A stretch of 64,000 nt of DNA, from positions 1 through 64,000 of the forward strand of contig CAWCKY010000002.1 of the NCBI GenBank assembly GCA_963796275.1. The letters run 5' to 3'. The position numbers were made by a program, and so were the translations under genes. The first letter of the stretch is position 1. Every line of letters begins with the position of its first letter. This stretch comes from an uncultured Acidobacteriota bacterium (GTDB lineage Bacteria > Acidobacteriota > Blastocatellia > RBC074). Below the pieces are notes generated by a model. It ran no database searches. It was not told where the DNA came from and saw only the letters and a list, made by a program, of their open reading frames with translations. Positions 24,477 to 40,789 of the stretch are shown here, piece after piece.

Positions 24477-25022
24477 GGAGATTTGAGACGTCGAATTAAG
24501 GAAAGATGTGACGATGTTCGGTGAACGATGTAGCGATTTACACCCGCACCACTGATTATTTTCAAATGTGTTCAATATTGAACAAAACCCCGACCCAAAG
24601 TTGATCTATCATTTATTCGTTCCGTTGTCATCTAGCAAATTGTTTACTCTAAAGCCATACAATTCTGTCGTCCCTATAGATAACATTATCCTAAGGCCTT
24701 TCAGCCGAGTATTTGGGTCGACCCTATCGCATCGAGTGATGTCTCGTTGGCTTGACGACATTTTCCGATGCTCAAAAGACGTTTCATCAGGTACTTTAAC
24801 CGGACAAAATGCTTATCCGATATTTTAATTACCCTTAGCGTAAAATTTTTCGTGAATGGCAAAGCAATGCCATCAACTCTTACTCAGCAGCGCGGTCTTT
24901 AGTCTCTTTCGAATAATTTCTTTCACGTATTGTTCTCGGGTCTGAGGCGGCCCAGCTACAGTGGGACATTCTTTAACCCGAATATTGGTTAAATTCGCAC
25001 AAAAGTAACAATTTAACCCTTT

Positions 25023-26405
25023 ATGAAAATCTGGCACCGCTTTATCGGTCAAAGACCTGAAGCGACGATTCTCGATGCACTAAACCGGGAGAATCTCGCT
25101 TTTTATTCCTGCGAATCGCTCGCGCCGCAGGGCGCCGGTGTCGTCTTTTTCGATGAGATCACGCCACAGCTTTTTGACCTGTTGCGTGAGGTGAGTCGGC
25201 GCGGGCTGGGGAGGGTGCTGGTCGTCGCACCGAGATGCTCGAGTTTAAAAATCGATTGTGTTTGGGAAATGCTGAAAGCCGGGGCTTCGGACGTTTTGGC
25301 CTGGGATCATTCCGACAGTCCGGCGCGCGAGGTGGCGGCGAGGTTCGAGCGGTGGGAGAAGGTCGACGAGATTGTCGAGTCGCCGCTGGTGAGAGGGAAC
25401 CTCGCGGGTCGTAGTTCGGCTTGGGTTCGTGCGCTCAGGCAGATCGTCGAGGTCGCGCGGTTCACCGATGCCTCAGTGTTGATCACGGGGGAGAGTGGGA
25501 CGGGAAAGGAGCTTGTCGCTCGGTTGATCCACACGCTTGATCCGCGGCCGGGTAAGCGCAGTCTGGTCGTTTCCGACTGCACCACAATCGTGCCGGAGCT
25601 TTCGGGCAGCGAATTTTTCGGCCACGAGCGTGGCGCTTTCACCGGCGCGGTCACTGCACGTGATGGGGCTTTCACACTGGCCGACGGCGGGACGCTCTTT
25701 CTCGATGAAGTCGGCGAATTGCCGCTCAACCTGCAGGCCGAGCTACTGCGCGTAGTGCAGGAGCGCACGTATAAACGCGTCGGCAGCAATACGTGGCAGA
25801 AGACCGACTTCCGTCTGGTGTGCGCGACCAACCGCGATCTGATCAAGGAACAGTCGCGCGGCCGTTTCCGGAGCGATCTCTATTACCGCATCGCCAGTTG
25901 GATTTATCAACTTCCGCCGTTGCGGGAACGTCGCGAAGACATCCTCCTGCTGGCGAAACATTTCATCTCTCAGCTTCGCTCCGACGATTCCGCCCAACTA
26001 CCGGAATTCGATGACGCCGTGCGCGAATACCTGCTCACGCGCGACTATCCCGGCAACGTGCGCGACCTCAGGCACCTTGTCATGCGCATCGTTCAGCATC
26101 ACGTGGGCCCGGGTCCGATCACGGCCGGAGACATTCCAGAAAATGAAAGACCGAGCGGAGACAGCGAATTGAAAGATTGGCGGTGTGAAAATTTGGAGAA
26201 CGCCATCCGCTTGGCGGTCGTATCGGGAGTGAATCTCAAGGAGATCGAACGCAATGCTGGGGAGATAGCCGAACGAATCGCGCTCGAAGAAGAACAGGGC
26301 AATCTGCAACGCGCAGCTTCCAGGCTCGGCGTGACGGATCGCGCGCTGCAGAAGCGCCGCGCGGCCCGCAGGCAAAACGGCAACAGTGTGGATACAGGTG
26401 CGTAG
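25023..26405 (+). CDS. Sigma54-dependent enhancer-binding protein (degenerate receiver-like N-terminus, AAA+, Fis-type HTH)
   Basis: GESGTGKE, GAFTGA loop, LFLDEVGEL, RFRSDLYYRI, YPGNVRDL, C-terminal NLQRAASRLGVT. Confidence 0.93.
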   Translation: MKIWHRFIGQRPEATILDALNRENLAFYSCESLAPQGAGVVFFDEITPQLFDLLREVSRRGLGRVLVVAPRCSSLKIDCVWEMLKAGASDVLAWDHSDSPAREVAARFERWEKVDEIVESPLVRGNLAGRSSAWVRALRQIVEVARFTDASVLITGESGTGKELVARLIHTLDPRPGKRSLVVSDCTTIVPELSGSEFFGHERGAFTGAVTARDGAFTLADGGTLFLDEVGELPLNLQAELLRVVQERTYKRVGSNTWQKTDFRLVCATNRDLIKEQSRGRFRSDLYYRIASWIYQLPPLRERREDILLLAKHFISQLRSDDSAQLPEFDDAVREYLLTRDYPGNVRDLRHLVMRIVQHHVGPGPITAGDIPENERPSGDSELKDWRCENLENAIRLAVVSGVNLKEIERNAGEIAERIALEEEQGNLQRAASRLGVTDRALQKRRAARRQNGNSVDTGA

Positions 26406-26417
26406 TTCGGTCTGTAA

Positions 26418-27251
26418 TCAATACGATTGGCCTGCCGGAAAATGAGCGCCCAGCCGCGGATCGCTGCCTTCAATCTGTCCCATTGCCGCTCCGATCTTCC
26501 AAATCGCCGGCGACCTCGGCGCTTTGACGCGCGAGATCAGTCGCAAAAAATTTCCGCCGAGGATTAGCCGCTCAGCCTCCGTGGGTAAACCCAGCGCTTT
26601 TACTTTTGCCAGTTCAACCGCCGGGTGCAGCCATGGTCCGTCGGAGCCGAAAAGAATTTTTCTTGCCCCTGCCCTGCGCACCGCCTGCTGGAGCAGATCG
26701 AAGCGCCGCACGCCCGATGTGTCAGTGTAAACATTTGAATGGCGAACCAGGTGATCAATCATAGCCAGTTGCGCACGCCAGTCGTCAGAAAAACTCCCGA
26801 GATGTGGGATAATGAAGCAAACGTCCGGGTATTCTTCGGCCAGCAACTCGACTACCGAAACTTCACCCATCACATCGTACATCACCGGCAGAGAGAGCGC
26901 GCGCGCAACTTCACAGACCTCGCGCGTGATCGTAGCGTCGTGCCGGTGCGCCTTGATCCCGACGAAGCCGTAGCCTGTCACCGCTTCTTCAATCATTACC
27001 GCAATGCGCCCGCGATCACGTTGTGGATTCACAAAAGCGAAGCCGTAAAAACGCCCCGGACGCGCGGCCACGATGCGCGCGACTTCGCGATTAGCCACCG
27101 CATAGTCCGAGTGAAAAGCGGCGAGAAGCACCGTGCGCTCAATGCCCGCGCGAATCGCGCGCGGCAGATATTTAGCGAGCGACGCGTTGGTGTCCCACGG
27201 GCCGGTCAATCCGTCGCCTGTGCCCGCGTGGCAGTGGCAATCAATAATCAT
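26418..27251 (-). CDS. Amidohydrolase_2-family metal-dependent hydrolase
   Basis: IDCHCH, IIPHLG, YTDTSG, ILFGSDGP motifs. Confidence 0.9.
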   Translation of the reverse strand: MIIDCHCHAGTGDGLTGPWDTNASLAKYLPRAIRAGIERTVLLAAFHSDYAVANREVARIVAARPGRFYGFAFVNPQRDRGRIAVMIEEAVTGYGFVGIKAHRHDATITREVCEVARALSLPVMYDVMGEVSVVELLAEEYPDVCFIIPHLGSFSDDWRAQLAMIDHLVRHSNVYTDTSGVRRFDLLQQAVRRAGARKILFGSDGPWLHPAVELAKVKALGLPTEAERLILGGNFLRLISRVKAPRSPAIWKIGAAMGQIEGSDPRLGAHFPAGQSY

Positions 27252-27264
27252 AATTCGATCCTCT

Positions 27265-28704
27265 TCACGTCGCGCTCGTAATAGCGGCGTGTTCTATCTT
27301 TTGTCGGCGCAATCCAATTGGCTTCTCCTGCCACGTACTAACTTCAGCCAGAAAATGAATAGATGTCGTAATGCCTTTGAAGAAATTGGGCAGATAAAAT
27401 TTCTCGTTTGGCGCGTGCATGCGGTCACCAGGCAGCGCAAAGCCCATCAAGATAGTGGGAATACCCAATATTTCCTGTAGGACGCTGACTACCGGAATTG
27501 TGCCGCCTGATCGTAAGTACACGGGCCTTGCGCCGAAGCTCTTTTGATATGCAACCGCTGCCGCTCGTATTGCCGGGTGACGGCGATTCACCAGAGCAGG
27601 CCGTGCCGCGAGGCTTGTCCGGATAACTGAGCGCACCGTAGCGGGTGTGACCCGGGCGATATGCTGACGAACCAGTTGGTCAATCTCACGCGGGTCTTGG
27701 TCGGGCACGAGCCGGAAATTGAGTTTCGCTGTCGCGCGGGCAGGGATGACTGCTTTGACGCCCGCTCCTTGATAGCCGCCGCTAATGCCGTTGACCGTGA
27801 GCGCCGGGCGAATGGTTGTCCGTTCGTAGAGAGTGTAACTGTGCTCGCCCCAGCTCTGCTTTGCGTGAGCATCGCGCAGTATTTGCCCGTCCGTAGGCCC
27901 AACGCTCGCCATGTAAGCCCGCTCCTCGTCATCCCACCAACGCACGCGGTTGTAAAAGTCAGGGATCGTCACGCGTCCGTGAGTGTCGTGCAAATTGGCG
28001 AGGATTTCGCATAGGGCTTGAAGCGGATTGTGTACCGCACCGCCGAAGTTGCCGGAGTGCAAATCCTGTTCCGGGCCATTCACTTCCAGCTCTAAGCTCA
28101 GCGCCCCGCGCAACGCGTAAGTGATCGCTGGGCGATGCGGCCCCAGGATTCGTGTGTCCGATAGCACAGCGACATCAGCTGCTAACATTGTTTGATGGCG
28201 TGCGAGGAAGGTGATGAGGTGCGGACTGCCAATCTCCTCTTCACCCTCAAATAGACATTTGACATTGACCGGCAGATTGCCGCTCGTGCGCAGATAAGAC
28301 TCCAGGGCTTTGACATGAACGAACAGTTGCCCTTTGTCATCGGATACGCCCCGGCCATAAAGAGAATCACGGCGTATGATTGGCTCAAACGGCGGCGAAC
28401 GCCATTCATGGAGCGGATCAGGGGGTTGTACATCATAATGACCATAGATCAGCACCGTAGGGCGCCCAGACAAATGATGCGACTCGGCATAAATAATCGG
28501 ATGGCACGGAGTAGGGATGATTTGGACATGCTCCAAGCCAATCTGTCGTAGATGATCGGCCAGCCAGGCCGCACATCTCTGTAGTTCGCTCGCAAACCGC
28601 GGCTGTGCGCTGATGGTAGGGAATCGCACGAATTCTTTCAGCTCTGTTATGAACCGTGAGCTGTTAGTTCGAGCATGGCGGATAGCTTTATTACTGATCT
28701 CCAT
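27265..28704 (-). CDS. M20-family dipeptidase
   Basis: YGHYDVQP, GRGVSDDKGQ, FEGEEEIGS, DLHSG, GGTIP, HAPNE. Confidence 0.93.
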   Translation of the reverse strand: MEISNKAIRHARTNSSRFITELKEFVRFPTISAQPRFASELQRCAAWLADHLRQIGLEHVQIIPTPCHPIIYAESHHLSGRPTVLIYGHYDVQPPDPLHEWRSPPFEPIIRRDSLYGRGVSDDKGQLFVHVKALESYLRTSGNLPVNVKCLFEGEEEIGSPHLITFLARHQTMLAADVAVLSDTRILGPHRPAITYALRGALSLELEVNGPEQDLHSGNFGGAVHNPLQALCEILANLHDTHGRVTIPDFYNRVRWWDDEERAYMASVGPTDGQILRDAHAKQSWGEHSYTLYERTTIRPALTVNGISGGYQGAGVKAVIPARATAKLNFRLVPDQDPREIDQLVRQHIARVTPATVRSVIRTSLAARPALVNRRHPAIRAAAVAYQKSFGARPVYLRSGGTIPVVSVLQEILGIPTILMGFALPGDRMHAPNEKFYLPNFFKGITTSIHFLAEVSTWQEKPIGLRRQKIEHAAITSAT

Positions 28705-28839
28705 AACAATCAGCGAATCATCTTTGTTCAGATCGTGTTCTCAATGATTTCAGCGACCAGCTTGAAGCCGCGGCTCGAAGCGGTACGCTTGAATCCAGTG
28801 TTACATCATTTGTCCACGCCGCCAGGCACAACCGACCCA

Positions 28840-28976
28840 TCGCCCTGGCCCGCGTGGCAGTGGCAATCAATCATCACAACTTGACTCTCTCCACGTCGCG
28901 CTCGCATTAGCAGCCTGTTCTATCTTTTATCGGCGCAATCCAAATGAGGTGGGACTGCCAATCTCCTCTTTACCTA
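28840..28976 (-). pseudogene. Decayed, internally deleted second copy of the M20/amidohydrolase junction
   Basis: 28847-28943 matches 27219-27318 (M20 end plus the IDCHCHAG start), and 28944-28974 matches ~28214-28246 (EEEIGSPHL). Confidence 0.75.
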
Positions 28977-29069
28977 CAATAATCACAGCAGGAAATCGCT
29001 TTGCCATACGAGCACTGCCTGCTTGGCCTTAATGAAAGACAACTCCGGGCTCGCTTTTACGATGGAAAC

Positions 29070-29400
29070 TTACGACGCGCATGCTGGCTTCGTTAGCGAG
29101 GCATCGGACGCTGGGGCTGACCGATTTAATAGTCCGCACAATACCAGGGGTAGGGCGGCCGCTGCCTGTATAATTTCTACCTGCTGCGCGATTAGCTCGG
29201 CGGCATAATTGCCAAAAGCCTTACCCGGAAGGTAGGCGTAAGTGCTGACGCCCTCATCAGCGGCGGCCGCGGCGGCCTTTTTAGCAATTCCTGCCATAGC
29301 CAGCGGGTCGCTTATGCCACCAGCGATCGCGGCTGCGGTCGTAGCGGCCGCAGCTGCGGTCTTGGCCGCCGGTAGATGCCAGGGCGAGGAATTGACATCG
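29070..29400 (-). pseudogene. Ala-rich ORF remnant
   Basis: The 75-aa ORF frame stays open upstream (…AAKTAAAAATTAAAIAGG…) without a clear start. Confidence 0.3.
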
Positions 29401-29671
29401 GATCGAGTTCTTCATGAAAGATTGCGTGTCGGACCCAGTGTGCTGCCCTTGCCAGGCGTGCGCCAATTCGTGGATGAGCGAATTGGAGCGGAGGCGCGTC
29501 TCTCAGACGCGCGAATCAAGGTTCATCACCACATAAGAACCGGCGGGGAGCGGGACGGCGACAGTAAATGGTCGACCCTGCGCGCCCAGCCCGTCAGAGA
29601 TCAGTATTTTGGTGATACATCTACGGCTAATCTCCCCTGTCCCTCCAGACGAAGAACGTTGCCTCAAGCGC

Positions 29672-31354
29672 TTACCGCCCGTCAACTGACCAGTGCCACG
29701 CCTCGCTGGGGAGGTTTTTCAACCCGAACCTGGCGGCGTTCGCGGCCAGCCACTGAAAGCCGGGGTTGTTGTGCGTCTCGATCAAAGCGCCGTTGTACGT
29801 GAAGTCGATGGCCAGACCGCGCTCGTGATTCGAGCGCCCGGGATTTGCCGTGGGCGGCTTGCATTCTTTAGCAGGCTTGTCGTAAATGTCGTAGTGAGTG
29901 GGGCCGCAGTGTTGCCGTCGCAATTCGATCTGCTCTTCGGGTGTGCGGAAACCTCCGCCGGAGAGCCTGACGCCGTCGGCATCCGCCGCTGCGAGCAACT
30001 TCGTGATCTGTGGCGCGATCTGGCGCGCGACCGTGATCTCTCGCACTTTGACTACATCGGGCCTGCCGGTAGGCGTTGTCGGGCTCGGCGTCGGCACAGG
30101 CGATGCGGCGGGATGGGAACCGACCGAGCGCAGAGCCGGCCGAACGATGGTAGCGCGTATCTTCACCCATTCGCTGGCCAGACTGGCATAGCCGGATTCA
30201 CTCCTGCTGAGCGCACGCCCGGATCGTTCGGGGTGACGCGTATTGAAGACCAGGTCGGTCAACTGAACCTCGTTGCGATTACCGTACACGACGGCCAGCT
30301 TCACCGCCGTGGATTCCAGACCCAGATTCAACATCTTCAACACGGGATAAGGGAACTGGTAAAGGTTGAACTCCGCCTCTTCGAAGTAGGTCTCGAGATC
30401 AGAGATCAGTTCCATCTCCGGCTCGGCTTTGTATAGCTTGCAGTTTTGAGTGGAGGTGCGATCGATGATCGGCGTTGTGCTCAGAGGGGGAAAGATGGAA
30501 GAGGGCCACGAGGTTTCCGGTTGAATCGCGGGCGCGCCGCCCGTTACTCGGATCGATCCTGGGGCGAGATTCACCGCGCGCTGATCGATGAAGAACGCAT
30601 TGCTCATCTGGTTCAACCCTGAGAGCGGGCCGACCCATCTCCACTTTTTGCTGCGGGCGTAAGCTTCCGTGAATCCTCGCCATTCGTCGAAATCGCGGGG
30701 AAATCTCTTGTGCCGGTCCTTGAAATAGACCTTGGTGGAGGCGAATTCGCTAGCATTGCCGATGGGATTCGGAACCAGCCCTTTCATTGCGCGCTCCGCC
30801 AATGACCTAGCGCTGGCGGGCAGCCGGCTCCACGGAGTCCGCTGTAGTTCCAGAAAGCGGGCCAATTGGCCTTTCGGAATGTCCGTCCCTTCGTACGTTC
30901 CGCCAGTTTTTACAAACTCTGGTTTGTGTGCGTGACGCTTTGCGGCCCCCTTGCTTTTCAGCACCGGCTGCAGAGGCGTCGAGTAGGCGCGGATGAACTG
31001 GTGGAACGTCCGGTAGACCCGATGGGTGAAAAGCGCATAGCGATTGAACATCGCCCAGATCACCGCCTGATTGCCCGGGTCGTCGCGTCCCCCCGCTTCG
31101 CCCACCAGGAAACGCGCCGTCCACAAGACATCTTCGGCGGTGAACTGATAGGTGAACGGCTGGCGTCCCGGAATCGTCGTGGCGAGACTGCCGAACGGTC
31201 CGGCGGGCATTGTGGCGGCGGTTCGCCTAGTCGCGGTGCTCGCCGTCGAACCCGTTTCTCCCCACCACTCTTCCTCCCCCATTTCGCCTGGCCGGAAATC
31301 GAGCTCCGGGTGGAACTCGTTTGGTACGCTCTCAAAATATAATTGTCTGTTCAT
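29672..31354 (-). CDS. Multidomain peptidoglycan hydrolase: acidic leader + SleB/Hydrolase_2-like domain + unknown domain + M15 (VanY-like) peptidase
   Basis: DVLWTARFLVGEAGG…AVIWAMFNR (cell-wall-hydrolase-like); C-terminal SGGGFR…PGRSNHERGLAIDF…WLAANAARFG…EAWHWS. No signal peptide. Confidence 0.8.
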   Translation of the reverse strand: MNRQLYFESVPNEFHPELDFRPGEMGEEEWWGETGSTASTATRRTAATMPAGPFGSLATTIPGRQPFTYQFTAEDVLWTARFLVGEAGGRDDPGNQAVIWAMFNRYALFTHRVYRTFHQFIRAYSTPLQPVLKSKGAAKRHAHKPEFVKTGGTYEGTDIPKGQLARFLELQRTPWSRLPASARSLAERAMKGLVPNPIGNASEFASTKVYFKDRHKRFPRDFDEWRGFTEAYARSKKWRWVGPLSGLNQMSNAFFIDQRAVNLAPGSIRVTGGAPAIQPETSWPSSIFPPLSTTPIIDRTSTQNCKLYKAEPEMELISDLETYFEEAEFNLYQFPYPVLKMLNLGLESTAVKLAVVYGNRNEVQLTDLVFNTRHPERSGRALSRSESGYASLASEWVKIRATIVRPALRSVGSHPAASPVPTPSPTTPTGRPDVVKVREITVARQIAPQITKLLAAADADGVRLSGGGFRTPEEQIELRRQHCGPTHYDIYDKPAKECKPPTANPGRSNHERGLAIDFTYNGALIETHNNPGFQWLAANAARFGLKNLPSEAWHWSVDGR

Positions 31355-31365
31355 ACTTTGACCTC

Positions 31366-31941
31366 ATTCACCCACGCGAGGGCGCTTAATTCCATACCAC
31401 TTTCTTATTCTCGACGGGCGAACTGCCCCGAAGCCGTACATGCCTGAAAGGATGAGCATGAACTTCAGGTAGTAATTGTCCGCCGGTCAGGGATTATTGA
31501 CCATGAATTTCACCGGGATGCGCAACACTGAGTACTCCCGGATGCCGACACGCCGCCAAGCCTCCGAAGCCGCACGGGTCTCCAAAGAGAGTGGGTTGTT
31601 AATGACCACGTAATTGTCTCGCGGCAAACGGGGCCTCTTCCCGCCGGCGTAGAAGCCGAAAGTCGCTTGCACATCCAGGATGTTATATTGCACGTGGCGG
31701 CTCTGTTGACATTGACCAGTTCGATGCCGGAATTGGGGTTTTTCTTGATATATCGATGATCCGCCAGCATACGCACGATGCCCGATGAACCCTGCGCGGC
31801 CATTGTCTGCCCGGCGGCCGCGGCGGGAGTCCTCCCGCGCACCGCAGTAGTGACAGCATCACCTTCTAATTCGCCCAGCCACTCGCTCTCGGGTTGCCAA
31901 GCCTCCTGCTGTTCCACTGCCAATTCAAACGAGTCTCTCAT
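31366..31941 (-). pseudogene. Disrupted small protein with acidic leader
   Basis: It starts MRDSFELAVEQQEAWQPESEWLGELEG after AGGAG. Protein-like sequence appears to shift frame near 31700 (QYNILDVQATFGFY…) and continues past a TGA at 31487 to a stop just before the next gene. Confidence 0.5.
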
Positions 31942-32122
31942 CGGTGCTCCTTTTCTTATGCGCTAGTAGCGCTGTCGTACCTTGCGATTTTCTTTGGGGC
32001 GAATGCCGTCGGTCTTCGATCGCCGTGGCAGTCAGTCCGGTGAAGACCGAGTACAGTCACTGAATCTCCTGATCGGCGTTGCCATTCTTCTGAAGAATGC
32101 GTCAAGACTGAAAGCGCAATTC

Positions 32123-35100
32123 CTATTCGTGAACAAAGAAAGGGACTTTTCCTTGAACCATCGCTCCGCGCATATTGAGCATCAATTGATTCGCCCAATT
32201 CTTTGCGCCCGCCTGCGCCGTTCGTGGAACGAATTTTCCGTCTTTCCAGACCTTTCCAACCAAGTCCCCGCGTTCGGGACGGATCATTGCGACGTGCCCG
32301 ATCCCGCCTGGATTTTTCAACACTGCAACCGCCGGCAAGCCGAAGTTGGCAAACTGTTGGGCGACGTAACTCGGTTGCAAGAGCAACGGGGGAGAGGAAT
32401 GTACGCTTCCGGCGATTCGCTCAGCAGCCTGGCGTAAATTGGCGGTGATTGCTGGGGCGTTAAGCTGCTGTCCGCCGCCCGCTTGGGATCGGGCGTGGAT
32501 CCAATTGCAGAGAGCATTATCGATCGGAATCCATCCTCGGATACGACCGTTACTGCGCAGCCAGTCCACTGTTGCGTTAGCATTTAGCTCAGTCCACTGT
32601 TTAGAATCGCGCTGATCGCAGTTGGGAAACCGTGATCGGCAAACCCAGTGAGGAATGCTTGCCCACATCGCACGCGTGACATCGTGAACATAGATGTTGC
32701 AATAAGTAGGGCCTTTGGGAACGCGTCGGTAGCGAGCATTTTCGGGAACAGACCTATCGCTCTCGCCGACGTTGAAGTAATCGAGAACAGCTTCGTAATT
32801 CGCCTTGCCACGATTCGATGGATTGTTCCACGGCGCGTCCTTGTCAATGATGTCACGACTCTTTCCTCGCTCAGGCCAGCATCTACCAGTGCCGGATGAG
32901 CAGATGGTTCCTGTGATCCCTTTCAGCGGGCCTTCTACAGGCGGAACAGTAGCCGACGATTGAGCAGGTTTTGTGGTGGGGGTTGAGGGCGATCCCCAGC
33001 GCCCGAACCTGTCTGTGATCCCTCCCCATTCCAATTCCTGACTTGGCTGTGCGGGAGCCGCCGGCAACCGCGTTTGCAAGGTCGTTCCCAACCGTTCCTG
33101 CCAGTGATGAATCGGGACCCAATTGTGCCCCTTCGCTGCGGAACGCGAGACGAAGATGTTGGGAACCTTTTTCTGTTTGAGCTTCTCGGACCGCACGCGC
33201 GTGCTGCTTTGATAATGAATGAAGAGCCGCGCGTCGGGGCGCGACTTGGCCCATTGCGCCCAGAGGTTTTCGTCGCCGGTGAAGTAGAGGCAATCGAAAC
33301 CCCAACACTCTTTGATGTGACTGGCGTAGCGGCTCTTGCCCATCGCCAATTGACGCATTGGCAGCCCGCCGCCTGAATGGCAGGCGAGGATGAGGTTGCC
33401 GAGTTGCGGACGCTGACCCTGATACGGACCGTGCGTCGCCAGCGCGGCCAGCGCCTGGTCAACGTATTTGTCTAGCCCGCCCGGTTGCGCCAGCCATCCG
33501 GTCTGCGTTTGCGAGCGCGGGCCGAGCGTCGGCGCGACGAGAAGGAAATTCTTCCCGCTTCGATTCAGTCCCTCGCGCAGAGGCCAGGTTGGGAAGTGGC
33601 TCCGGTTCCAGTAGCTGTTGACTGTCAGGTCGGCTTTAGGCTTAACGCCATGCAGGTAGATGATCAAGTCCACTTTCGGCTCCGGTCGGAAGTTCTGCGG
33701 GATGAAGATGCCCGTCATGGGCTTAGCGGGCCGTTCGGCGCCGAGGGGAATGCTGACGTAGAGCGTCTGGCCCGGCGGCGTCTGCTCCTGACCGATCAGG
33801 CTTGGTGCGGCAGCTGGCGCCGTGAATTCGTCGTGGATCGGACCGATCCCTTCATCCTCGAATTCCTCTTCAAACTCCTGGAATTCTTGGAAGATTTCAG
33901 ACTGTGGCGAAGCTTGAGGGTTGTATTCCCAATGCCACGGCTCACGTTCGTAGGGGTAGAAGCCGAAGCGGCGCGCATTCGCAACCAACCAGCGGTAGGC
34001 AGGCAAAGTCCGCAAATTGGCGACGTCGCCGCTGGAATTTTTTCCGCCCAGATAGATGTCAATGGCGCGGCCGCTCTGATGTGCACTCCCGCCGGGCGGC
34101 GCCACCCATTTGCGCGCCTCTTCCGGAGAGCCGTATTTTTGGAGGGCAGTTGCCCAGAGCCGAGCCTGGTGGGCTGGATCGCGGAAGCCGCTGGTCAGTT
34201 GCAGCAAGGGCGCTTTGATCCCGTCCGCCCTAGCCGCGCATTGCATCGCGTCGAGCGCCTTTGCCGTCAGCCTATGCAGTGGAACAGTGCCGCCGAAGGC
34301 GCGTTTGACGAGAACTATATTGCTAGCATGCGGAGCGGTCTTATTCTTCACGCGACCGCCGCCCGGATTTTCTAGCACCACCGGCGTGAATGATGCACAG
34401 ACACCGGCTGATTCAAACTCCACGGTAGGGTCTGCTGCCTCAAATTCGAACTCCGTCAGACCGGGAAAGAGCGAAGACAGCCACGGAATCTCCTTATCGG
34501 CATCGCCATCCTTCGCTGCATCGGCAGAGCTGTTACTTGTCGCCGCATCATTCGACGCTGCGCCTGGGGGACCGTTACTCGTGGCGGCATCACCGGGAGC
34601 GCCATCAGGCGGAGCGCCGGCCGCGGCGCCGTTTGTCTTTGCACTGGCGCCGCCGCGCGTCGCGGCCACGAGCGCCTGTTCGGTATCGGGGCCGACTATG
34701 CCCGTCACCGGGAGATTTTCCCGGCCTTGAAAGCTGCGAACGGCTGCGCGCGTGGGCGCACCCATTACGCCGTCGATGGGTAGGTTTAATTTAAGAAGAT
34801 TATTCAATGAGACTTGTACCCATCGGACGCGCTCGTTGCCTCTGCGTGCCTGATCGTCGCCTACTCTTTCTGGCCTCTCCGGAGGCGGCTGCGGACCGCC
34901 CGAAGGCGCGGAATCCTGCCGAGGCTCCTGAGGAGTGGGTTCAAGCCGAATGCCCGGCCACGCCGGAAAAGGAATAAGGCCAGCCGGGCGTTTGATCCGG
35001 CGTCGAGGCCGTTTGCCCGCCTGCTGTTTGCGTCCGCCGGCGAATTTGCGCTCGGTAATGGATTTGCGCCTGGCAATGGATTTGCGCGCGGCAATAGATT

Positions 35101-35263
35101 TTTGCCTGGCAGTGGGCTTGCGCGCGGAAGAAGCTGTGCGCCTCGATCTTCTGAGCTCGTCCTCATCTTCTTGTTCGTAATTGGAGTGCTGCGAGCCGAA
35201 TTCCTCTTCTTCGTAATTAAAGGGCTGCGAGCCGAAAGCTTTAAGTTCAAATCTGTTGTTCAT
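32123..35263 (-). CDS. Multidomain protein: acidic leader, basic repeats, PG-binding domain, M15B D,D-carboxypeptidase, alpha/beta-hydrolase, CHAP/NlpC-like domain
   Basis: VRWVQVSLN…DGVMGAPTRAAVRSFQ…TGIVGPDT (PG_binding_1); SGFR…PGGSAHQSGRAID…EPWHWEY (M15B); YLHG…HSGGG…FD…H (hydrolase); TYCNIYV…GHVAM (papain-like Cys/His). Confidence 0.85.
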   Translation of the reverse strand: MNNRFELKAFGSQPFNYEEEEFGSQHSNYEQEDEDELRRSRRTASSARKPTARQKSIAARKSIARRKSITERKFAGGRKQQAGKRPRRRIKRPAGLIPFPAWPGIRLEPTPQEPRQDSAPSGGPQPPPERPERVGDDQARRGNERVRWVQVSLNNLLKLNLPIDGVMGAPTRAAVRSFQGRENLPVTGIVGPDTEQALVAATRGGASAKTNGAAAGAPPDGAPGDAATSNGPPGAASNDAATSNSSADAAKDGDADKEIPWLSSLFPGLTEFEFEAADPTVEFESAGVCASFTPVVLENPGGGRVKNKTAPHASNIVLVKRAFGGTVPLHRLTAKALDAMQCAARADGIKAPLLQLTSGFRDPAHQARLWATALQKYGSPEEARKWVAPPGGSAHQSGRAIDIYLGGKNSSGDVANLRTLPAYRWLVANARRFGFYPYEREPWHWEYNPQASPQSEIFQEFQEFEEEFEDEGIGPIHDEFTAPAAAPSLIGQEQTPPGQTLYVSIPLGAERPAKPMTGIFIPQNFRPEPKVDLIIYLHGVKPKADLTVNSYWNRSHFPTWPLREGLNRSGKNFLLVAPTLGPRSQTQTGWLAQPGGLDKYVDQALAALATHGPYQGQRPQLGNLILACHSGGGLPMRQLAMGKSRYASHIKECWGFDCLYFTGDENLWAQWAKSRPDARLFIHYQSSTRVRSEKLKQKKVPNIFVSRSAAKGHNWVPIHHWQERLGTTLQTRLPAAPAQPSQELEWGGITDRFGRWGSPSTPTTKPAQSSATVPPVEGPLKGITGTICSSGTGRCWPERGKSRDIIDKDAPWNNPSNRGKANYEAVLDYFNVGESDRSVPENARYRRVPKGPTYCNIYVHDVTRAMWASIPHWVCRSRFPNCDQRDSKQWTELNANATVDWLRSNGRIRGWIPIDNALCNWIHARSQAGGGQQLNAPAITANLRQAAERIAGSVHSSPPLLLQPSYVAQQFANFGLPAVAVLKNPGGIGHVAMIRPERGDLVGKVWKDGKFVPRTAQAGAKNWANQLMLNMRGAMVQGKVPFFVHE

Positions 35264-35443
35264 CTTTGCCTCTCATTCCTCGCCTTCGCCGCTCCGTGGG
35301 AGCAGGAGGCGCCGATCTATGTGGGTATACCTGTGAGTGCGACCACAGGAACCGTGGCGCACATGCACCGGGAGCCGCGAAGAGGCGATACAGAACTCGG
35401 TTTGTCGCCCCTTCGGGGCCGGGGATTTGGTGATCAATCGTCG

Positions 35444-37147
35444 TCACTTTTTCCCGGACGACTTGGCCGGGATGAGCGCCCGGCGGCGCGACGCGGGCAG
35501 CGCGGAGGAACCGGCCTCTCCGGCTGGCAGCGCTTCGCGCACCGGAGCTGGAAGGCTGCCGCGTGTGCTTTGCCTGGCCAGCCGCTCGCGCAACAGCGTC
35601 GACGGTTGAACGTAACGAGTCGCGGCCCCTCTGGTATCCACAATGTCTTCCGACAGGTCGACGCCGGTGGCCGTTTGGTAGGCGTGGATGTAGTTCTGGA
35701 TTTCGGGCCTCCAGTAGCGCGCCCAGTTCTTGGCGGCCTCCTGGTCGTTGATGACGCTCCAGTCGCCGTAGCGGACCGACAGGATGACCTGCTCGCCGTA
35801 AACCGACAGATTGCGGAAGTGTGTGATCGTAGTGTCGGTCCAGCCCTGCAGCTTCTTCATCGAATCGACCTGCCCCATCCAGCGTTCGTGGTATGGGACC
35901 ATCGCGCGGCCACGCAGGAATTCGCGCATCTCGGGCCTGGCCAGCATCCACTGCATTGTCAGCATCTCGGCGCGTGCCGTCCACGGCAGGTCGCCGAACT
36001 GGTTGTGCGCGCCTTCAGCCAGCAGCAGGTGAACTTCGCGCAGCGAGTTGAGCAGCGGGAAGCCGTCCGCGATGACCGTCGTGTGGGAGTCTTCGTGGTA
36101 GAACCACGACGCGCGGTGAAGCAGGCCATGAAAGGCCTCGATGAATTTCGAACGGCTGTCGGCGGAGCGCAGTTCTGGCACGGCCTTTCCCTCAAGCCGT
36201 AGCCCGTAAAGGTGGTCATACTCGTAGGCGCGACGCGGTACAGTCAGGCGGTTGTACTCGTCCTGGATAAACCCCCAGAGCAGGTTGTTGAGTGGCCGCA
36301 GCGCGTCCAGCTCAAGGTTGGCCAGAGGGTCGTTCTCCACCGGGCCGCGCTTATTCTGGAAGCGTAGGCAGATGGCGTTCATTGTTTGGACCAGCATGCC
36401 CTCTTCATTCCAGTACGACCAGATCAATTCGAGCAGGCTTGGGCTACTGAACCGGTTGAGCAGCAGTTGCTCGCAGTAGTGTAGCTGCTGCGCGTTCGTG
36501 CTGACTAGCGCGTCGACGATGCGCCGGAGGTAGGGCAGGCGCGCGCCGCCCGGCAAGGTCGAGCCGAGGTAGTCGTTGAGCCGGCAGCGGATCTCGTTGA
36601 AATTGACATTTTCGCCGAGTCTCCCCTCTTCGCCTGGAACGGTGCCGTTCGGGTCAATGTCGGGTTCGCCGGTCGATGGATTTCTGGGGGGTTTGACGGC
36701 GACGCCCGCCTCGCAGAGCAGGAAGGCCTGCGTCGCCGCCTTGAGCATATTGTAGGCGTCTACCCCGTAGACGCTCGGGGCGGCCAGCAGATCACCCTTT
36801 CGATCATAAATCGAGGGGGCGCTGATCTCGCCCAGTGAAGGACCATCCACGCTGGGAGCTGTGTCAGCCGCTTCTGCCGGTTCAAGCGAGCCTCCCGGGG
36901 TATCCTCGACGCCCAGGACGCGGTCGATGAAGAACCGGTAATTGTCGAAGCCGATGGCCTCGGTGCGATTGCGGATCGCGGCCCAGAGCACCTGGTCGGG
37001 CGTCTGTGCGACATCGGGCCGCGTGAGGCTGACCCGGAGCGGTGGCCGTGGCGGTCCACCCCTGACGACGATGCAGTCTGCTAGTTGATTTTTCTGGGTA
37101 TCGATCGGGAGATCGCCCCCGGTTTGAATATCGATGTTGTTTGCCAT
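35444..37147 (-). CDS. Hypothetical protein (567 aa), probable core component of the sigma54 operon
   Basis: Long GC-biased ORF with AAGGAGG RBS, 9 bp after the previous stop. Rich in Trp/Tyr motifs (LELIWSYWNEEGML, YEYDHLYGL, NWARYWRPEIQNY); no family recognised. Confidence 0.88.
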   Translation of the reverse strand: MANNIDIQTGGDLPIDTQKNQLADCIVVRGGPPRPPLRVSLTRPDVAQTPDQVLWAAIRNRTEAIGFDNYRFFIDRVLGVEDTPGGSLEPAEAADTAPSVDGPSLGEISAPSIYDRKGDLLAAPSVYGVDAYNMLKAATQAFLLCEAGVAVKPPRNPSTGEPDIDPNGTVPGEEGRLGENVNFNEIRCRLNDYLGSTLPGGARLPYLRRIVDALVSTNAQQLHYCEQLLLNRFSSPSLLELIWSYWNEEGMLVQTMNAICLRFQNKRGPVENDPLANLELDALRPLNNLLWGFIQDEYNRLTVPRRAYEYDHLYGLRLEGKAVPELRSADSRSKFIEAFHGLLHRASWFYHEDSHTTVIADGFPLLNSLREVHLLLAEGAHNQFGDLPWTARAEMLTMQWMLARPEMREFLRGRAMVPYHERWMGQVDSMKKLQGWTDTTITHFRNLSVYGEQVILSVRYGDWSVINDQEAAKNWARYWRPEIQNYIHAYQTATGVDLSEDIVDTRGAATRYVQPSTLLRERLARQSTRGSLPAPVREALPAGEAGSSALPASRRRALIPAKSSGKK

Positions 37148-37156
37148 ATTGCCTCC

Positions 37157-38509
37157 TTAAATTTTGGCGAATGAAAATGATGGCGCGGCCAGCCGGCTCC
37201 GCGATGGTTTAGCGCAATTGATTTTGTGATTGAGCGAGTCGCGCAAAGCCCAGTAAGTGAGCATCTTTGACAAGACCCGGCTCACTTCTTCCGGGCCGAT
37301 CAGGCCTTCGAAGAGGGCCTGACCGATCACCGCGAACACCATTGCCGGCGAGGCCCGGTACATCTGAGCAGGCTGTGCCCGCCAGGATTGAAAATGTTCC
37401 CCTAAACGCGTGGGCTGTCGCTCGTCCGTTTGCAGGACTTCTTCGAGCGAAGCGCCGCGAAGAGCCTTTGGCCGGTGGTGGGCGAAGATCGTCGCCAGAG
37501 CCGGCATAGTCTTTTCGAGCAGCGCGAGAGTGCGGCGCTTCTCGCGATCTCGATCGTCCGGCGGGTAATAAGCGAGCCAGGTCTGTTCCAGCCTGTCCCA
37601 TTGCGGGTGCGGGAAGAGCGCCCGCCCGATGGCGATGCTCAAACGCACCCGGATCCAGGGAACCGGGTGCGGGTCGTCCAGATTCAGCCGGAAGACGAAG
37701 TACCGCGGCAGAGTCACGACTCCCATCAGCCCCAGCGTCGAGGTGATCCCAACTCTGGCAACCGACCAGAAATCGGCGAGGATCTCCGAGATGCAACGAT
37801 CCCAATATGCCCAAGCCTCGCTCTCCTCGCCGCCGTTGCGCTGCAACCCGCGCAGCACTTGCCTGATCGAATCGATCAGGCCGAGCAGCGCCGCGGCCTG
37901 ATGTCCGACTTCATGGATCAGCGACGACGCGATTCCGCTCCCCACCATTCGCTCACGCGGCACCCGGATGATGGCTACGGGGTTTTCGCCCCCGCCCGGC
38001 AGCCGCGTCCTTGCCCTACGGATCGCCGCGCCGTGCCCGCGATCCAGGTAACAGACCAAGCCGGGCGCCCGGTAGTAATCGCCCGACACCGAAAGGGCGT
38101 CCGCCGCGACGGCGTCCAGTCCCGACAGCCAAACCCCGGTTTCGTGCTCGCTGCGCTGCGTCAGCGCGTCAGCGAAGATGTCGAATTGGGACAACGTGAC
38201 GTTGAACTGAAGTCGCAGCATTCTGAAACGCTGGTGCGCCACTTCGATCGAAGCCGATTGCCCTGCTGGACCGCGCAGCCAGTCGAGGTAGCGGAGCACC
38301 AGCCGGTGGAGTTTGCCCCGGCCATCGATCAGGTAACGGTCGATGGCGCTCAGCAAACCCGGGGACAGTGCCGCCGCCGGGACCATCGTTTCGTGTAGGG
38401 CGAACGGCTTGACCTGACCCAGTCGTGACAGTAAGGCCTGTGCCTCCTGATCGAGCAGACCGAGGGCTGGTGAACGGGCCAGGAATGATTTGGCGAGTGT
38501 GGCGGTCAT
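37157..38509 (-). CDS. Soluble HEXXH zinc metallopeptidase-like protein (M48/gluzincin-like motif order)
   Basis: LIHEVGHQ…SEILADFW…DPHPVPWIR; no signal peptide and no clear multi-TM region; starts 3 bp after the upstream stop. Confidence 0.8.
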   Translation of the reverse strand: MTATLAKSFLARSPALGLLDQEAQALLSRLGQVKPFALHETMVPAAALSPGLLSAIDRYLIDGRGKLHRLVLRYLDWLRGPAGQSASIEVAHQRFRMLRLQFNVTLSQFDIFADALTQRSEHETGVWLSGLDAVAADALSVSGDYYRAPGLVCYLDRGHGAAIRRARTRLPGGGENPVAIIRVPRERMVGSGIASSLIHEVGHQAAALLGLIDSIRQVLRGLQRNGGEESEAWAYWDRCISEILADFWSVARVGITSTLGLMGVVTLPRYFVFRLNLDDPHPVPWIRVRLSIAIGRALFPHPQWDRLEQTWLAYYPPDDRDREKRRTLALLEKTMPALATIFAHHRPKALRGASLEEVLQTDERQPTRLGEHFQSWRAQPAQMYRASPAMVFAVIGQALFEGLIGPEEVSRVLSKMLTYWALRDSLNHKINCAKPSRSRLAAPSFSFAKI

Positions 38510-38512
38510 GGC

Positions 38513-39283
38513 TCAGGCCCCCATAATGACAATGGATTTACCGCGACGGATCCAACGCCCGGTGGCTTTATGCGAACACCTCTTGCCGTTGGTGTGACCT
38601 TCGGGCCTGCCGGCGGTTTGGCTCGCGGCTGGGCGGAGCAATCCGGGGGCGTGCTCTTGGGCGGCGGACGTCAGCGCGGCTTGCGCGGCCTGCAGCGGCG
38701 GCATCGATCCAGGGGCCTGAGCGGCGTTCTGTGCGGCGGCGCCTGACAGGCGAACCACCTGCTTGGCGACCTCGAACTCCTGGTCTTCGTAGCTCAACCC
38801 TTCAAGCTCCAGCCCTAACATTTGGCCCCCGGCCGAGGCTAACTGGCCCCCAATGGCGCCCCCGACGCCCGGCAAAAGGAAGTTGCCTGCGGCGCTGCCC
38901 AGCATCGGCATAGCCGTCTTGGCGACGCCCTTTAACGCCCCACCTAAAGCGCGACCGACCGGCGACTCGATAGCTTTACCAAACTTGCGGCCGATCTTTT
39001 TGAAGAGTTTACCGATGAACTGATCCAGCTCGGCCTCGTTCGAGATGGTCAGCAACTCAGCCGCCAGCTCCATCTCTTCTGCCTCGCTGAACGGGCTTTC
39101 CATCGCGTATTCGCCCATGTACTCGCCATCGGTTTCAGACTCCTCGTACTCCTCGCCTATGTATTCGCCGTCGGTTTCAGACTCGTGGTCGCCTTCAAGC
39201 TCGTATCCGAATTCGTCGGTCTCAAATTCACCGTCATACTCGCCGTAGTTCGACTCCAGGTTTGTGCGGTCAATGTTGTGCAT
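38513..39283 (-). CDS. Acidic-leader protein with central cationic/Gly-rich amphipathic segment (first gene of the operon)
   Basis: AAGGAG RBS; Glu/Tyr-rich N-terminus, then FIGKLFKKIGRKFGK…GGQMLG, then LELEGLSYEDQEFEVAK, ending GRWIRRGKSIVIMGA. Confidence 0.9.
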   Translation of the reverse strand: MHNIDRTNLESNYGEYDGEFETDEFGYELEGDHESETDGEYIGEEYEESETDGEYMGEYAMESPFSEAEEMELAAELLTISNEAELDQFIGKLFKKIGRKFGKAIESPVGRALGGALKGVAKTAMPMLGSAAGNFLLPGVGGAIGGQLASAGGQMLGLELEGLSYEDQEFEVAKQVVRLSGAAAQNAAQAPGSMPPLQAAQAALTSAAQEHAPGLLRPAASQTAGRPEGHTNGKRCSHKATGRWIRRGKSIVIMGA

Positions 39284-39369
39284 AAATTTCTCCTTGTTGA
39301 CTTCGTTGACTTCATAGACTTCGGTTTATGGTGCGGGCTGCCCGGATACCGAGCGGCGATCGTTGCTTC

Positions 39370-39386
39370 TGCATCGGGCGTGCCAG
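39370..39386 (-). promoter_or_regulatory. Sigma54 (-24/-12) promoter
   Basis: Minus strand CTGGCACGCCCGATGCA is GG-N10-GC, matching TGGCACG-N4-(T)TGCW, ~87 bp upstream of the ATG at 39283. Confidence 0.85.
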
Positions 39387-39389
39387 TGG

Positions 39390-39402
39390 TAAGTTATTGA
39401 TT
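39390..39402 (-). promoter_or_regulatory. IHF-binding site
   Basis: Minus strand AATCAATAACTTA is an exact match to WATCAANNNNTTR, just upstream of the -24 element. Confidence 0.7.
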
Positions 39403-39409
39403 TTTCGTG

Positions 39410-39519
39410 CGGTGAGGACGAAAAGTGCCTCGATGAGGCGAAAAGTGCTTCGGTGAGGCGAGAAAAGTGCTTCGGTGAGACGAAAAGTGCTTTGGTGCAA
39501 CGTATGGTGCTTCGGTGAA
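39410..39519. repeat. Tandem 20-22-bp repeat array (GAAAAGTGCTTCGGTGAGGC-like, ~5 copies), candidate enhancer sites
   Basis: CGGTGAGGACGAAAAGTGCCT CGATGAGGCGAAAAGTGCTT CGGTGAGGCGAGAAAAGTGCTT CGGTGAGACGAAAAGTGCTT TGGTGCAACGTATGGTGCTT CGGTGAAG. Confidence 0.85.
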
Positions 39520-39699
39520 GATGGAACTCGAGGAATCTGGCGAAGTTATCTTCGGAAGACCCTAACCCCCTGTTGCAGACCGTTCCATAAAATATGGTCG
39601 AATATGACTCATACTTTACGCCGGCGCTTTTGTTTATTTGCCGCCGGCAGTTTCGCTCTCTGATTGACGCGCGATTTGATCTCAGGCGCTCCGGCGCGT

Positions 39700-40046
39700 T
39701 CTAGAGTCGGCCCCGGAACGGTCACCGTCCTGATCTTCCCATCCTGAGATGAGGCATTCCGGTGTTCCAAGCGGGACTAGTACCTTTCGACAAGAATCAT
39801 CCTGACGGTCTCTTTAGGCGTATAAAGAGTGATCCTCGGATCATTGACTCTTGCCTTCTGGTTGATTGCCGCGATCACATCCGCATGGCCCGCGTGCCAG
39901 CATTTGACGCACTGAAACCTATCTCCCTTGCGATTCGCCTTACTCAAATAACCGCAAGCGGGACAGGTTTGCGAGCTGTATGCCGGATTGACCTGCTCTC
40001 GACGGCATCCTGCCGCCGACGCCTTGAAGCCGATCCTTTCCCTCAA
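39700..40046 (-). mobile_element. TnpB 3' remnant (Zn ribbon + RuvC-III) with probable downstream element end
   Basis: VNPAYSSQTCPACG…RFQCVKCWHAGHADVIAAIN; the N-terminal part is missing. Confidence 0.8.
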
Positions 40047-40194
40047 CGCGTGTCGATGCCAATAACTCTCATCGTCGGCGCCGTGATAACCTATATCAGA
40101 GATATGATCCTTAATGATCGTCCGAGTAAATCGTGAGTAACGTGAAACCGGGCCAGTGGTTTCGGGTAAGGAGAGAGTAATGCGCCTGCCGGCG

Positions 40195-40527
40195 TCAGAG
40201 CGGAAGTCGAGTTATTTGGCCAACCAGACTCTCCAGGTCGGTAGGCCACAGCGCGGCGAATGCGGCGGCATAATCCCGCCCACGTTGTTGTGGGATCGCC
40301 AAAAGAAGGATTCCGAATTGGGGCGTCACGTAACGGCCAAGCTACGCCGCGTCGAAGTCTTTGTCGCGTGTGATGAAAAGATCGAAGTCCGTGCGCGCTC
40401 GCGTCAAGAGGTCGCCGTTTTTAATGCCTTTCCAACCGATGAAGTTTACGGATTCGGCCGTGTGCCCGGCTGAGCGCAAGAACGGCTACACATCAACAGG
40501 GACGTTTTCGTCAAGCAGGATTCTCAT
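40195..40527 (-). pseudogene. DUF5615/PIN-like (VapC45-type) toxin with two in-frame TAG stops
   Basis: Manual translation gives MRILLDENVPVDV*PFLRSAGH…GWKGIKNGDLL…FITRDKDF…* with TAG at codons 14 and 62; ATGA overlap with the upstream DUF433 gene. Confidence 0.85.
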
Positions 40528-40760: not shown

Positions 40761-40789
40761 ACCAACATTTTATCGCAGCCTCGGTTGAG

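Follow-up and report, generated by a model that had tools for sequence, protein, structure and literature searches.

How could bacteria deploy enzymes against a cell wall when neither these enzymes nor the proteins encoded beside them carry a signal peptide? The question is raised by a cassette of genes in a 64,000-nt stretch of DNA from an uncultured Acidobacteriota bacterium (contig CAWCKY010000002.1, positions 1 to 64,000), which was analysed as a whole and is called the window below. In this cassette three core genes (A, B and C) are followed by the cargo genes D and F with a doubtful ORF, E, between them, by genes for an M20 dipeptidase and an Amidohydro_2 metal-dependent hydrolase, and by a convergent gene for a bacterial enhancer-binding protein (bEBP). 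The feature is real, and it represents a widespread, horizontally spreading cassette with a conserved gene set, a link to sigma-54 and a variable cargo of wall enzymes. As to mechanism, we tentatively read it as a sigma-54-gated cassette in which B would unmask pro-forms of A, a glycine-zipper-like protein, and of the signal-less wall hydrolases, leading to lysis of the producer, attack on its neighbours, or both.

A preliminary description of this DNA had reported a co-directional operon with tightly coupled core genes and a convergent bEBP gene at its tail. This layout held for every open reading frame (ORF), gap and motif. A (38513-39283, minus strand, 256 aa), B (37157-38509, minus strand, 450 aa) and C (35444-37147, minus strand, 567 aa) are separated by 3 bp (A/B) and 9 bp (B/C), and the gaps among C, D, E and F are 155-181 bp. 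The bEBP gene (25023-26405) lies on the plus strand and contains the GAFTGA motif that had been read there. No signal peptide or transmembrane segment was detected in A-F, every hydrophobic 19-mer scoring at most 1.3 on the Kyte-Doolittle scale. Searches of the nine cassette proteins against Pfam and NCBIfam showed no component of a type VI secretion system, an extracellular contractile injection system, a type VII secretion system or an encapsulin, in line with the absence noted before. PADLOC gave a best match of E 0.0096 to a short stretch of A, all its other matches being at 0.07 or above, and neither NCBIfam nor PADLOC added a family for A, B or C. Rfam matched nothing in the region 24000-41500 at E<=0.1, and scans for terminators and sigma-70 promoters returned no more sites than shuffled sequence did. 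Three features had gone unmentioned in that description, namely E, the gap of 967 bp between F and the M20 gene, and tandem repeats upstream of the promoter. Taken together, the earlier observation was confirmed, while its interpretation is partly supported.

The conservation of the cassette was measured across species. A scan with one genome per species yielded 73 loci, from Acidobacteriota, Alpha-, Beta- and Gammaproteobacteria, Desulfobacterota, anammox Planctomycetota, Nitrospirota, Verrucomicrobiota, Bacteroidota/Rhodothermota and one Cellulomonas, so that the cassette spans at least eight phyla. Their C proteins are 41-72% identical to that of the window over the best aligned segment. 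Gene order was determined by tblastn, the best segment being required to span at least 40% of the query, at 58 loci where 3.5 kb or more of sequence precedes C and at 44 loci where 9 kb or more follows it. B and A were each found upstream of C on the same strand at 55 of the 58 loci, and homologues of C itself number more than 5000; the core genes are thus not orphans. Downstream, a convergent bEBP gene was present at 38 of the 44 loci and the amidohydrolase gene at 34. The synteny expected earlier therefore stood for A-B-C, the bEBP and the amidohydrolase; it did not stand for the M20 gene, which was found at only 4 of 44. The gene set is undescribed as far as our full-text searches reached, subscription journals and supplementary files lying outside the search.

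Two findings set the window apart from most other loci. First, the M20 dipeptidase (27265-28704, minus strand; Pfam Peptidase_M20 and M20_dimer) belongs to the NCBIfam equivalog PRK08201 (533 bits against a cut-off of 441), and its sporadic occurrence shows that it is a local addition and not a core part. The proposal that the tail enzymes handle released peptides thus fails as a trait of the system. Second, a BioF/Kbl-like pyridoxal-phosphate enzyme of about 360 aa, which had not been foreseen, is encoded directly after C at 38 of the 44 loci (Pfam Aminotran_1_2 at 5e-15, below all NCBIfam cut-offs). No such gene was found in the window or elsewhere in its genome, which is 94.7% complete, with the protein of locus L005 as query. 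These results indicate that the cassette of the window is a variant that gained a dipeptidase and is without the BioF-like gene. The amidohydrolase (26418-27251, minus strand; Pfam) is the most conserved cassette protein, with a median identity to the window of 72%, followed by B (58%), the bEBP (56%), C (53%) and A (46%); the BioF-like enzyme has a median of 51% against the L005 query.

We then consider how the cassette is switched on. A sigma-54 promoter had been placed at the head of the operon, and a -24/-12 element (39371-39385, minus strand, TGGCACGCCCGATGC) of the form TGGCAC-N5-ATGC does lie 88 nt upstream of the ATG of A; its -12 part deviates from TTGC at one position. Taken by itself, a match of this kind does not stand out from chance, with 7 found in the window and 4.7 expected. 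The tandem repeats next to it (39420-39517, minus strand) are far less expected: five units of about 20 bp share the core CACCGAAGCACTTTTC, which has 6 matches in the window versus 0.59 expected, five of them within the array. Tandem Repeats Finder reported a period of 20 and 4.2 copies. The array is located 35-130 bp upstream of the -24 element and is a putative enhancer (upstream activating sequence) to which the bEBP may bind. A 9-bp unit (GAAGTCAAC when read on the coding strand) is also repeated three times in tandem within the 5′ leader of A, at 39296-39323, a little ahead of the ribosome-binding site.

The promoter was compared with that of other loci. In the 400 bp upstream of A, elements with a score of 9 or more out of 11 were present at 26 of 57 other loci versus 11 of 335 control windows. 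A wider search over 940 bp upstream of A listed an element at 43 loci, a count printed with no denominator. At 6 of these 43, the two members of the best repeated 12-mer pair were spaced 41-42 bp apart immediately in front of the element; in four of the six the 12-mers contain CGAAG, as do the repeats of the window; having no control set, this resemblance is only suggestive. The bEBP begins with a domain of about 125 aa, continues with an AAA+ domain that contains GAFTGA (Pfam Sigma54_activat at 5.6e-57, with AAA_lid) and ends in HTH_8. Its N-terminal domain belongs to no Pfam family even at E<=10, and the best NCBIfam matches of the protein (RtcR, NorR and NifA) are all far under their cut-offs. 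The genome of the window has one rpoN match, of 198 bits.

The strongest evidence for the sigma-54 link came from an actinobacterium. In Cellulomonas sp. Root930, a 419-aa sigma-54 gene (Sigma54_DBD 94.9 bits, Sigma54_CBD 37.5 bits) lies directly upstream of A (locus L068, 4997-6256). Of 31 genomes related to Root930, two were found to contain sigma-54 and two a C homologue, and these are the same two genomes; in both, the sigma-54 gene and C are 4-5 kb apart. Because both genes are confined to the same two genomes, the cassette appears to have brought its sigma factor into a lineage that, in the genomes searched, is otherwise without it.

B is the part of the cassette whose chemistry is best indicated by its residues. 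The HEXXH motif reported earlier is present as HEVGH. The B family counts 917 cluster representatives at E<=0.001, and in 34 diverse members H199, G202, H203, E242, D246, H281, P282, P284 and R287 are invariant, while E200 is kept in at least 90%. These residues form three motifs, H199-E200-x-x-H203, E242-x-x-x-D246 (SEILAD) and H281-P-x-P-x-x-R287, with ExxxD starting 38 residues after HExxH. HExxH with a downstream ExxxD whose Glu is the third zinc ligand is the gluzincin arrangement (MEROPS clan MA(E)). By its motifs, B is predicted to be a cytoplasmic gluzincin-like metallopeptidase, and it falls in no described family. None of the 34 members matched a consistent Pfam family at E<=10. Assignment to Peptidase M48 (PF01435) was considered and found no support in Pfam, no member matching it at that threshold.

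The structural comparison proposed in the preliminary description was carried out for B and C. The AlphaFold2 model of B (predicted local distance difference test, pLDDT, 92.1; predicted template modelling score, pTM, 0.89) has a long helical N-terminal domain, and a global Foldseek search of the PDB with this model gave no match at E<=0.001; beyond that threshold, M3 and M1 peptidases appeared at E 0.5-0.6. The model of C (pLDDT 71.5, pTM 0.76) is all-alpha, and it had no match at E<=0.001 in the PDB or BFVD and no usable match in the ESM Atlas. A profile of C against PDB sequences reached a best E of 1.3, which is not significant, and its 45 aligned members showed only scattered chance matches in Pfam at E<=10. 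B and C, which by sequence too match no PDB entry, are therefore large families without known fold relatives in the libraries searched. For C, 5086 homologues were scored at E<=0.001 among 8000 candidates; the best 120 are 61-83% identical to it, and all named ones are called hypothetical protein. The alignment of 45 sequences from many phyla contains 53 invariant columns, many of them Trp, Arg, Glu, Gln, Asn or His.

Joined forms of the core proteins and contacts between them were also considered. A and B are joined in one ORF in metagenome clusters P0188, P0196, P0215, P0249 and P0263, and B is joined to a piece of C in cluster P0194. These fusions are weak evidence for the reading preferred here because they may be gene-calling artefacts; the longer relatives of B proved to be such read-through forms of A-B or B-C and showed no new domain. 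A complex prediction with alignments for B (residues 14-435) and C (residues 39-530) scored 0.00 against a mark of 0.32, which speaks neither for nor against binding. Two observations on the reading frame of C were made at other loci. At L022, L036, L037, L043, L045 and L048 the tblastn match of C crosses a TGA stop into (A/L)DFTSALYLG, which is the in-frame start of the adjacent BioF-like gene and not read-through. At L030 (10001-11404) a TAG stands inside C where other sequences have Tyr, a sign of decay.

A belongs to no Pfam or NCBIfam family, although 2083 proteins are related to it at E<=0.001; these are named hypothetical or, by one source, DUF697 family. Its charge is distributed in blocks. 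Residues 1-87 are acidic and aromatic (net -31), residues 88-158 are cationic (net +8) and residues 226-256 are cationic again (net +7). The middle block is rich in Gly and Ala (27 of 71 residues), with conserved glycines spaced as in GxxxG. In the family alignment, the N-terminus MH(D/N)IDRT is followed by an acidic/aromatic stretch of variable length, a helix-like block EEMELAAELLEV..EAELDQFLG, the Gly/Ala-rich cationic block with its conserved glycines, a second acidic block LELEG.S.ED.EFE, the motif HAPGLL and a C-terminal motif. The last, GRWxRRGxxIVLxG, is strictly C-terminal in 50 of 55 family ORFs, and A of the window ends in the conserved tail GRWIRRGxxIV. Most loci carry two or three A paralogues in tandem.

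This arrangement could be read in another way. The A paralogues might be precursors in a pathway for a small molecule or for something like a ribosomally synthesised and post-translationally modified peptide (RiPP), with MHDIDRT... and EEMELAAELLEV as leader and GRWxRRGxxIVL as core; C, the amidohydrolase and the BioF-like enzyme would then be tailoring enzymes, B the leader peptidase and the hydrolases helpers. The tandem paralogues with strictly conserved ends are consistent with it, as are a peptidase gene adjoining the precursors, the high conservation of just these three enzymes or enzyme-like proteins, and the invariant polar and aromatic residues in which C is rich in the fashion of an enzyme. 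However, A is 220-270 aa long and conserved over its full length, not only in a leader and a core. No known RiPP tailoring enzyme or recognition domain was found by Pfam in the window cassette or the sampled loci, the BioF-like gene is absent from both copies of the cassette in the genome of the window, and the cargo, in which there is no core peptide, shares the acidic tag alone. We consider a pathway of this kind improbable.

The tag leads to the cargo. The preliminary description had read signal-less peptidoglycan enzymes here, which holds for D and F. D (32123-35263, minus strand, 1046 aa) consists of an acidic/aromatic tag (residues 1-37, net -9), an Arg/Lys/Pro polybasic stretch (38-142, net +22), PG_binding_1 (143-198), VanY (329-449) and two further regions at about 470-745 and 760-1046. 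F (29672-31354, minus strand, 560 aa) has a tag (1-35, net -7), two domains without a family (40-300 and 300-435) that reappear in other cassettes, and a C-terminal VanY (441-546). E (31510-31941, minus strand) is a 143-aa ORF with an acidic/aromatic N-terminus (residues 1-30 net -8); it has no family and no homologue across the 73 loci, and is a doubtful gene or decayed cargo. The first 40 residues carry net charges of -14 in A, -7 in D, -6 in E and -7 in F and contain no hydrophobic stretch, so that none of the four has a Sec- or Tat-type N-terminus. The extra domains of D and F, like E, belong to no Pfam family at E<=10. Readings of D 470-745 as an alpha/beta hydrolase and of 760-1046 as a Cys-His amidase were made by eye, with a chlorophyllase match of E 0.34 as their sole support; neither is claimed.

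Cargo differs from locus to locus. The variable block is located between C, or the BioF-like gene, and the amidohydrolase gene, and its domains are shuffled between loci, as had been expected of it. Across the 73 loci, PG_binding_1 was found at 34, the middle of D at 10, the middle of F at 9, VanY at 5, the N-terminal domain of F at 3 and the C-terminal domain of D at none. At other loci the block encodes M23 peptidases, an M10-like peptidase, OmpA-like wall binders and small HEAT-repeat proteins. The N-terminus of many cargo proteins is a tag of the type F.FEAEPFEF, behind which comes a polybasic stretch rich in Arg and Pro. With the tag defined as a net charge of -4 or lower and at least 3 aromatic-acid pairs in residues 1-40, it was present in 18 of 95 cargo ORFs, and none of the 223 control ORFs taken from the sequence flanking these loci had it; the 18 are a lower bound because ORF starts were assigned mechanically. 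The GRWxRRG motif of A occurs in 6 of 172 ORFs called in cargo regions. It lies near the N-terminus in L005, L025 and L043, internally in L032, and at the C-terminus in L047 and L066, whose ORFs end like proteins of the A family.

A tag common to unrelated cargo also suits a weapon that the producer would survive, in which B and C, perhaps with A, would form or load a new carrier or conduit that recognises the tag and exports or packages the hydrolases for delivery to competitors without lysis. Processing, packaging or delivery by the core proteins had been proposed in the preliminary description. The cargo is modular and polymorphic like that of toxin systems, the polybasic stretch would suit passage through the outer membrane of a target, the small HEAT-repeat proteins encoded after some cargo genes could be immunity proteins, and B and C are invariant parts without a known fold. 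On the other hand, there is no transmembrane segment in A-F, the only ATPase is the transcription activator, and no known secretion or injection component is encoded. Moreover, the same cassette occurs in diderm phyla and in an actinobacterium, which argues against a machine spanning the envelope. Non-lytic export is thus unlikely.

We were also interested in how the cassette moves. C was detected in 5 of 41 genomes of the window's relatives, its own genome included. Among 72,556 plasmid records it was detected in 4, each of them a rhizobial or a Paraburkholderia megaplasmid and one carrying a reduced copy. The reduced copy, on pBPHY01 of Paraburkholderia phymatum (L078), keeps only residues 225-545 of C and has neither cargo nor a BioF-like gene, another sign of decay. 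The cassette has a G+C content of 0.594; the remainder of the window has 0.544, and the highest of 17 outside 5-kb windows reaches 0.576. The cassette is flanked by an RRXRR+HNH (IscB-like) gene (23370-24476, plus strand) and a TnpB-like fragment with a TNB domain (40757-41422, minus strand), which are remnants of IS200/605-type elements. No phage genes were found in the flanks.

A relic at 28824-28944 (minus strand), in the gap between F and the M20 gene, shows how cargo may be exchanged. It resembles the junction between the end of the M20 gene and the start of the amidohydrolase gene: residues 1-18 of the amidohydrolase match at 28877-28824 (67% identity, E 0.002) and residues 463-479 of the M20 protein at 28944-28894 (E 0.73, alone not significant). 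The relic is probably a recombination scar, and it points to recombination where the amidohydrolase gene starts as the way in which the cargo block is swapped. A similar fragment of the amidohydrolase N-terminus was seen within the cargo block of L034 (13680-13946).

The genome of the window also contains a second copy of the cassette (L076, C4:984000-1003900, cassette at 6166-13037). It encodes A (225 aa), B (453 aa), C (584 aa, 62% identical to C of the window), the amidohydrolase and a single 694-aa cargo protein in which PG_binding_1 occurs twice. On its upstream side, in divergent orientation, are a 200-aa ORF without a Pfam family, a 315-aa ORF and a CHAT/TPR protein. The 315-aa ORF has a weak match (21.2 bits against a cut-off of 22.2) to zf-HC2, of a kind seen in anti-sigma factors.

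The distribution and the mobility bear on two further explanations. Sigma-54 regulons often serve nitrogen and stress responses, and the cassette might accordingly be for programmed remodelling or turnover of the producer's own wall, in starvation, in resting cells or for recycling under nitrogen limitation. Wall peptidases, a dipeptidase and an amidohydrolase would make a plausible catabolic chain, and the usual roles of such regulons fit. However, a patchy, horizontal distribution, with C in 5 genomes of 41 and at 45-65% identity between phyla, would be unusual for housekeeping or development, the cargo has no export signal, and cargo sets differ between close cassettes, the dipeptidase being restricted to 4 of 44 loci. 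Remodelling of the own wall is distinctly unlikely on these grounds. Abortive infection, in which a phage would trigger the bEBP and the infected cell would be lysed before phage release, is very improbable. The cassette is indeed mobile, patchy and self-contained, with a lytic payload and with remnants of IS200/605-type elements on both sides in the window. But no PADLOC match was obtained at E<0.009, C was found in none of 50,697 phage records, transcription through sigma-54 is a slow route, and suicide would not need variable, tagged, polycationic wall enzymes.

The reading we tentatively prefer, unmasking by B, would run as follows. Some signal would activate the dedicated bEBP, which would bind the tandem repeats and fire the -24/-12 promoter. 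The operon would then yield cytoplasmic pro-forms, namely A masked by its acidic/aromatic N-terminal region and a variable set of peptidoglycan hydrolases, each with a short acidic/aromatic tag, a polybasic stretch behind it and no secretion signal. B, acting with C or under its control, would remove the acidic regions. Unmasked A could permeabilise the cytoplasmic membrane in a holin-like way. The hydrolases would thereby reach the wall, the producer would lyse, and the polycationic hydrolases would be released onto neighbouring cells, which they might attack. A more far-reaching formulation is about as tentative. It describes a new class of portable module for release or attack, licensed by sigma-54, in which B and C would act on the shared tag and so arm A and the interchangeable polycationic wall hydrolases; the module would be self-sufficient behind differing envelopes and would carry its own sigma factor into a lineage otherwise without sigma-54.

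Several points weigh against unmasking by B. A has no transmembrane helix (peak hydrophobicity 1.15 as a 19-residue Kyte-Doolittle mean) and is therefore not a canonical holin. No cleavage site common to A and the cargo was found, and no immunity gene was recognisable. In the second copy of the cassette, neither a bEBP gene next to it nor enhancer repeats were seen, and no -24/-12 element could be recognised. F and the M20 gene are separated by a gap of 967 bp, with a sigma-70-like site (28744-28717, minus strand) just before the M20 gene, in a scan that found no excess of such sites over chance. Moreover, the amidohydrolase (72%), C (53%) and the BioF-like enzyme, which is like an alpha-oxoamine synthase (51%), are more conserved than A (46%), the supposed effector. 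Such conservation is in keeping with enzymes whose substrate is constant, a hint of chemistry outside the model; that the model assigns no role to these three proteins is one of its weak points.

If the reading were true, thousands of soil, freshwater and wastewater bacteria would deploy wall-degrading enzymes without a known secretion system, the carriers being Acidobacteriota, Proteobacteria, Desulfobacterota, anammox Planctomycetota, Nitrospirota, Verrucomicrobiota, Bacteroidota and some Actinomycetota. It would add two large protein families without known fold relatives, B and C, and offer a natural source of wall hydrolases fused to polycations. The Cellulomonas case is a rare instance of a mobile module that carries sigma-54 along, and gives a direct handle on sigma-54 dependence. 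New here are the synteny counts, the exclusion of the M20 dipeptidase from the core, the variant free of the BioF-like gene, the tag statistics, the second copy without an activator, the relic and the Cellulomonas rpoN.

Two other observations were made elsewhere in the window. Two overlapping ORFs at 17212-18432 and 18365-20773 (plus strand) both match OMP_b-brl_4, in its N-terminal and C-terminal part, respectively; a single TonB-dependent-receptor-like gene has probably been broken in two here, by a frameshift or an error of sequencing. In 8863-15796 (minus strand), a nonribosomal peptide synthetase ORF has two Condensation and two AMP-binding stretches with one PP-binding domain, and adjoins an MbtH-like protein fused to an unrelated C-terminal part.

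The cassette was finally compared with known systems. PspF with the psp operon is a dedicated module of a bEBP and sigma-54. The two cases are alike in having one activator beside one sigma-54 operon with enhancer-like repeats upstream; they differ in the content of the operon, which is unrelated, and in the N-terminal domain of the present bEBP, which has no family. Thermolysin-type gluzincins resemble B in HExxH and in ExxxD 38 residues on, whereas B is paired with C and has neither a consistent Pfam peptidase family nor a fold match in the PDB at E<=0.001. The glycine-zipper toxins Tse4 and CdzC/CdzD permeabilise membranes and are exported by type VI or type I secretion systems. The Gly/Ala-rich cationic middle of A, with glycines spaced as in GxxxG, is similar to them, but A has a long acidic pro-region, the tail GRWxRRGxxIVL, no dedicated exporter and no match to them in Pfam or NCBIfam searches.

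Lysostaphin-type bacteriolysins share the plan of pro-region, catalytic domain and wall-binding domain, and cassette cargo likewise includes M23 and LAS-type peptidases. The pro-region can be inhibitory, and lysostaphin carries a signal peptide (PMC13490525). The cassette cargo has no signal peptide and no evident immunity gene; it has a polybasic stretch after its acidic tag and a protease encoded in the same operon. A secreted pro-bacteriolysin of the lysostaphin type was rejected on account of the missing signal peptide. Since the wall hydrolases of the cassette are without signal peptides, they could be released only if the membrane were damaged. For proteins that have no signal, release of a holin-like kind is exemplified by TcdE and autolysis in C. 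difficile (PMC6016235). Holin-endolysin cassettes are alike in placing a signal-less wall hydrolase, with peptidoglycan-binding and catalytic domains, beside a small protein, here the possibly membrane-active A. A phage-type cassette of this kind was rejected, there being no phage context and no transmembrane holin, a part that holin-endolysin cassettes have and that A, without such a helix, does not supply. Conversely, holin-endolysin cassettes lack a protease, a 567-aa protein, an amidohydrolase and a sigma-54 activator of their own, all of which are encoded in the present cassette.

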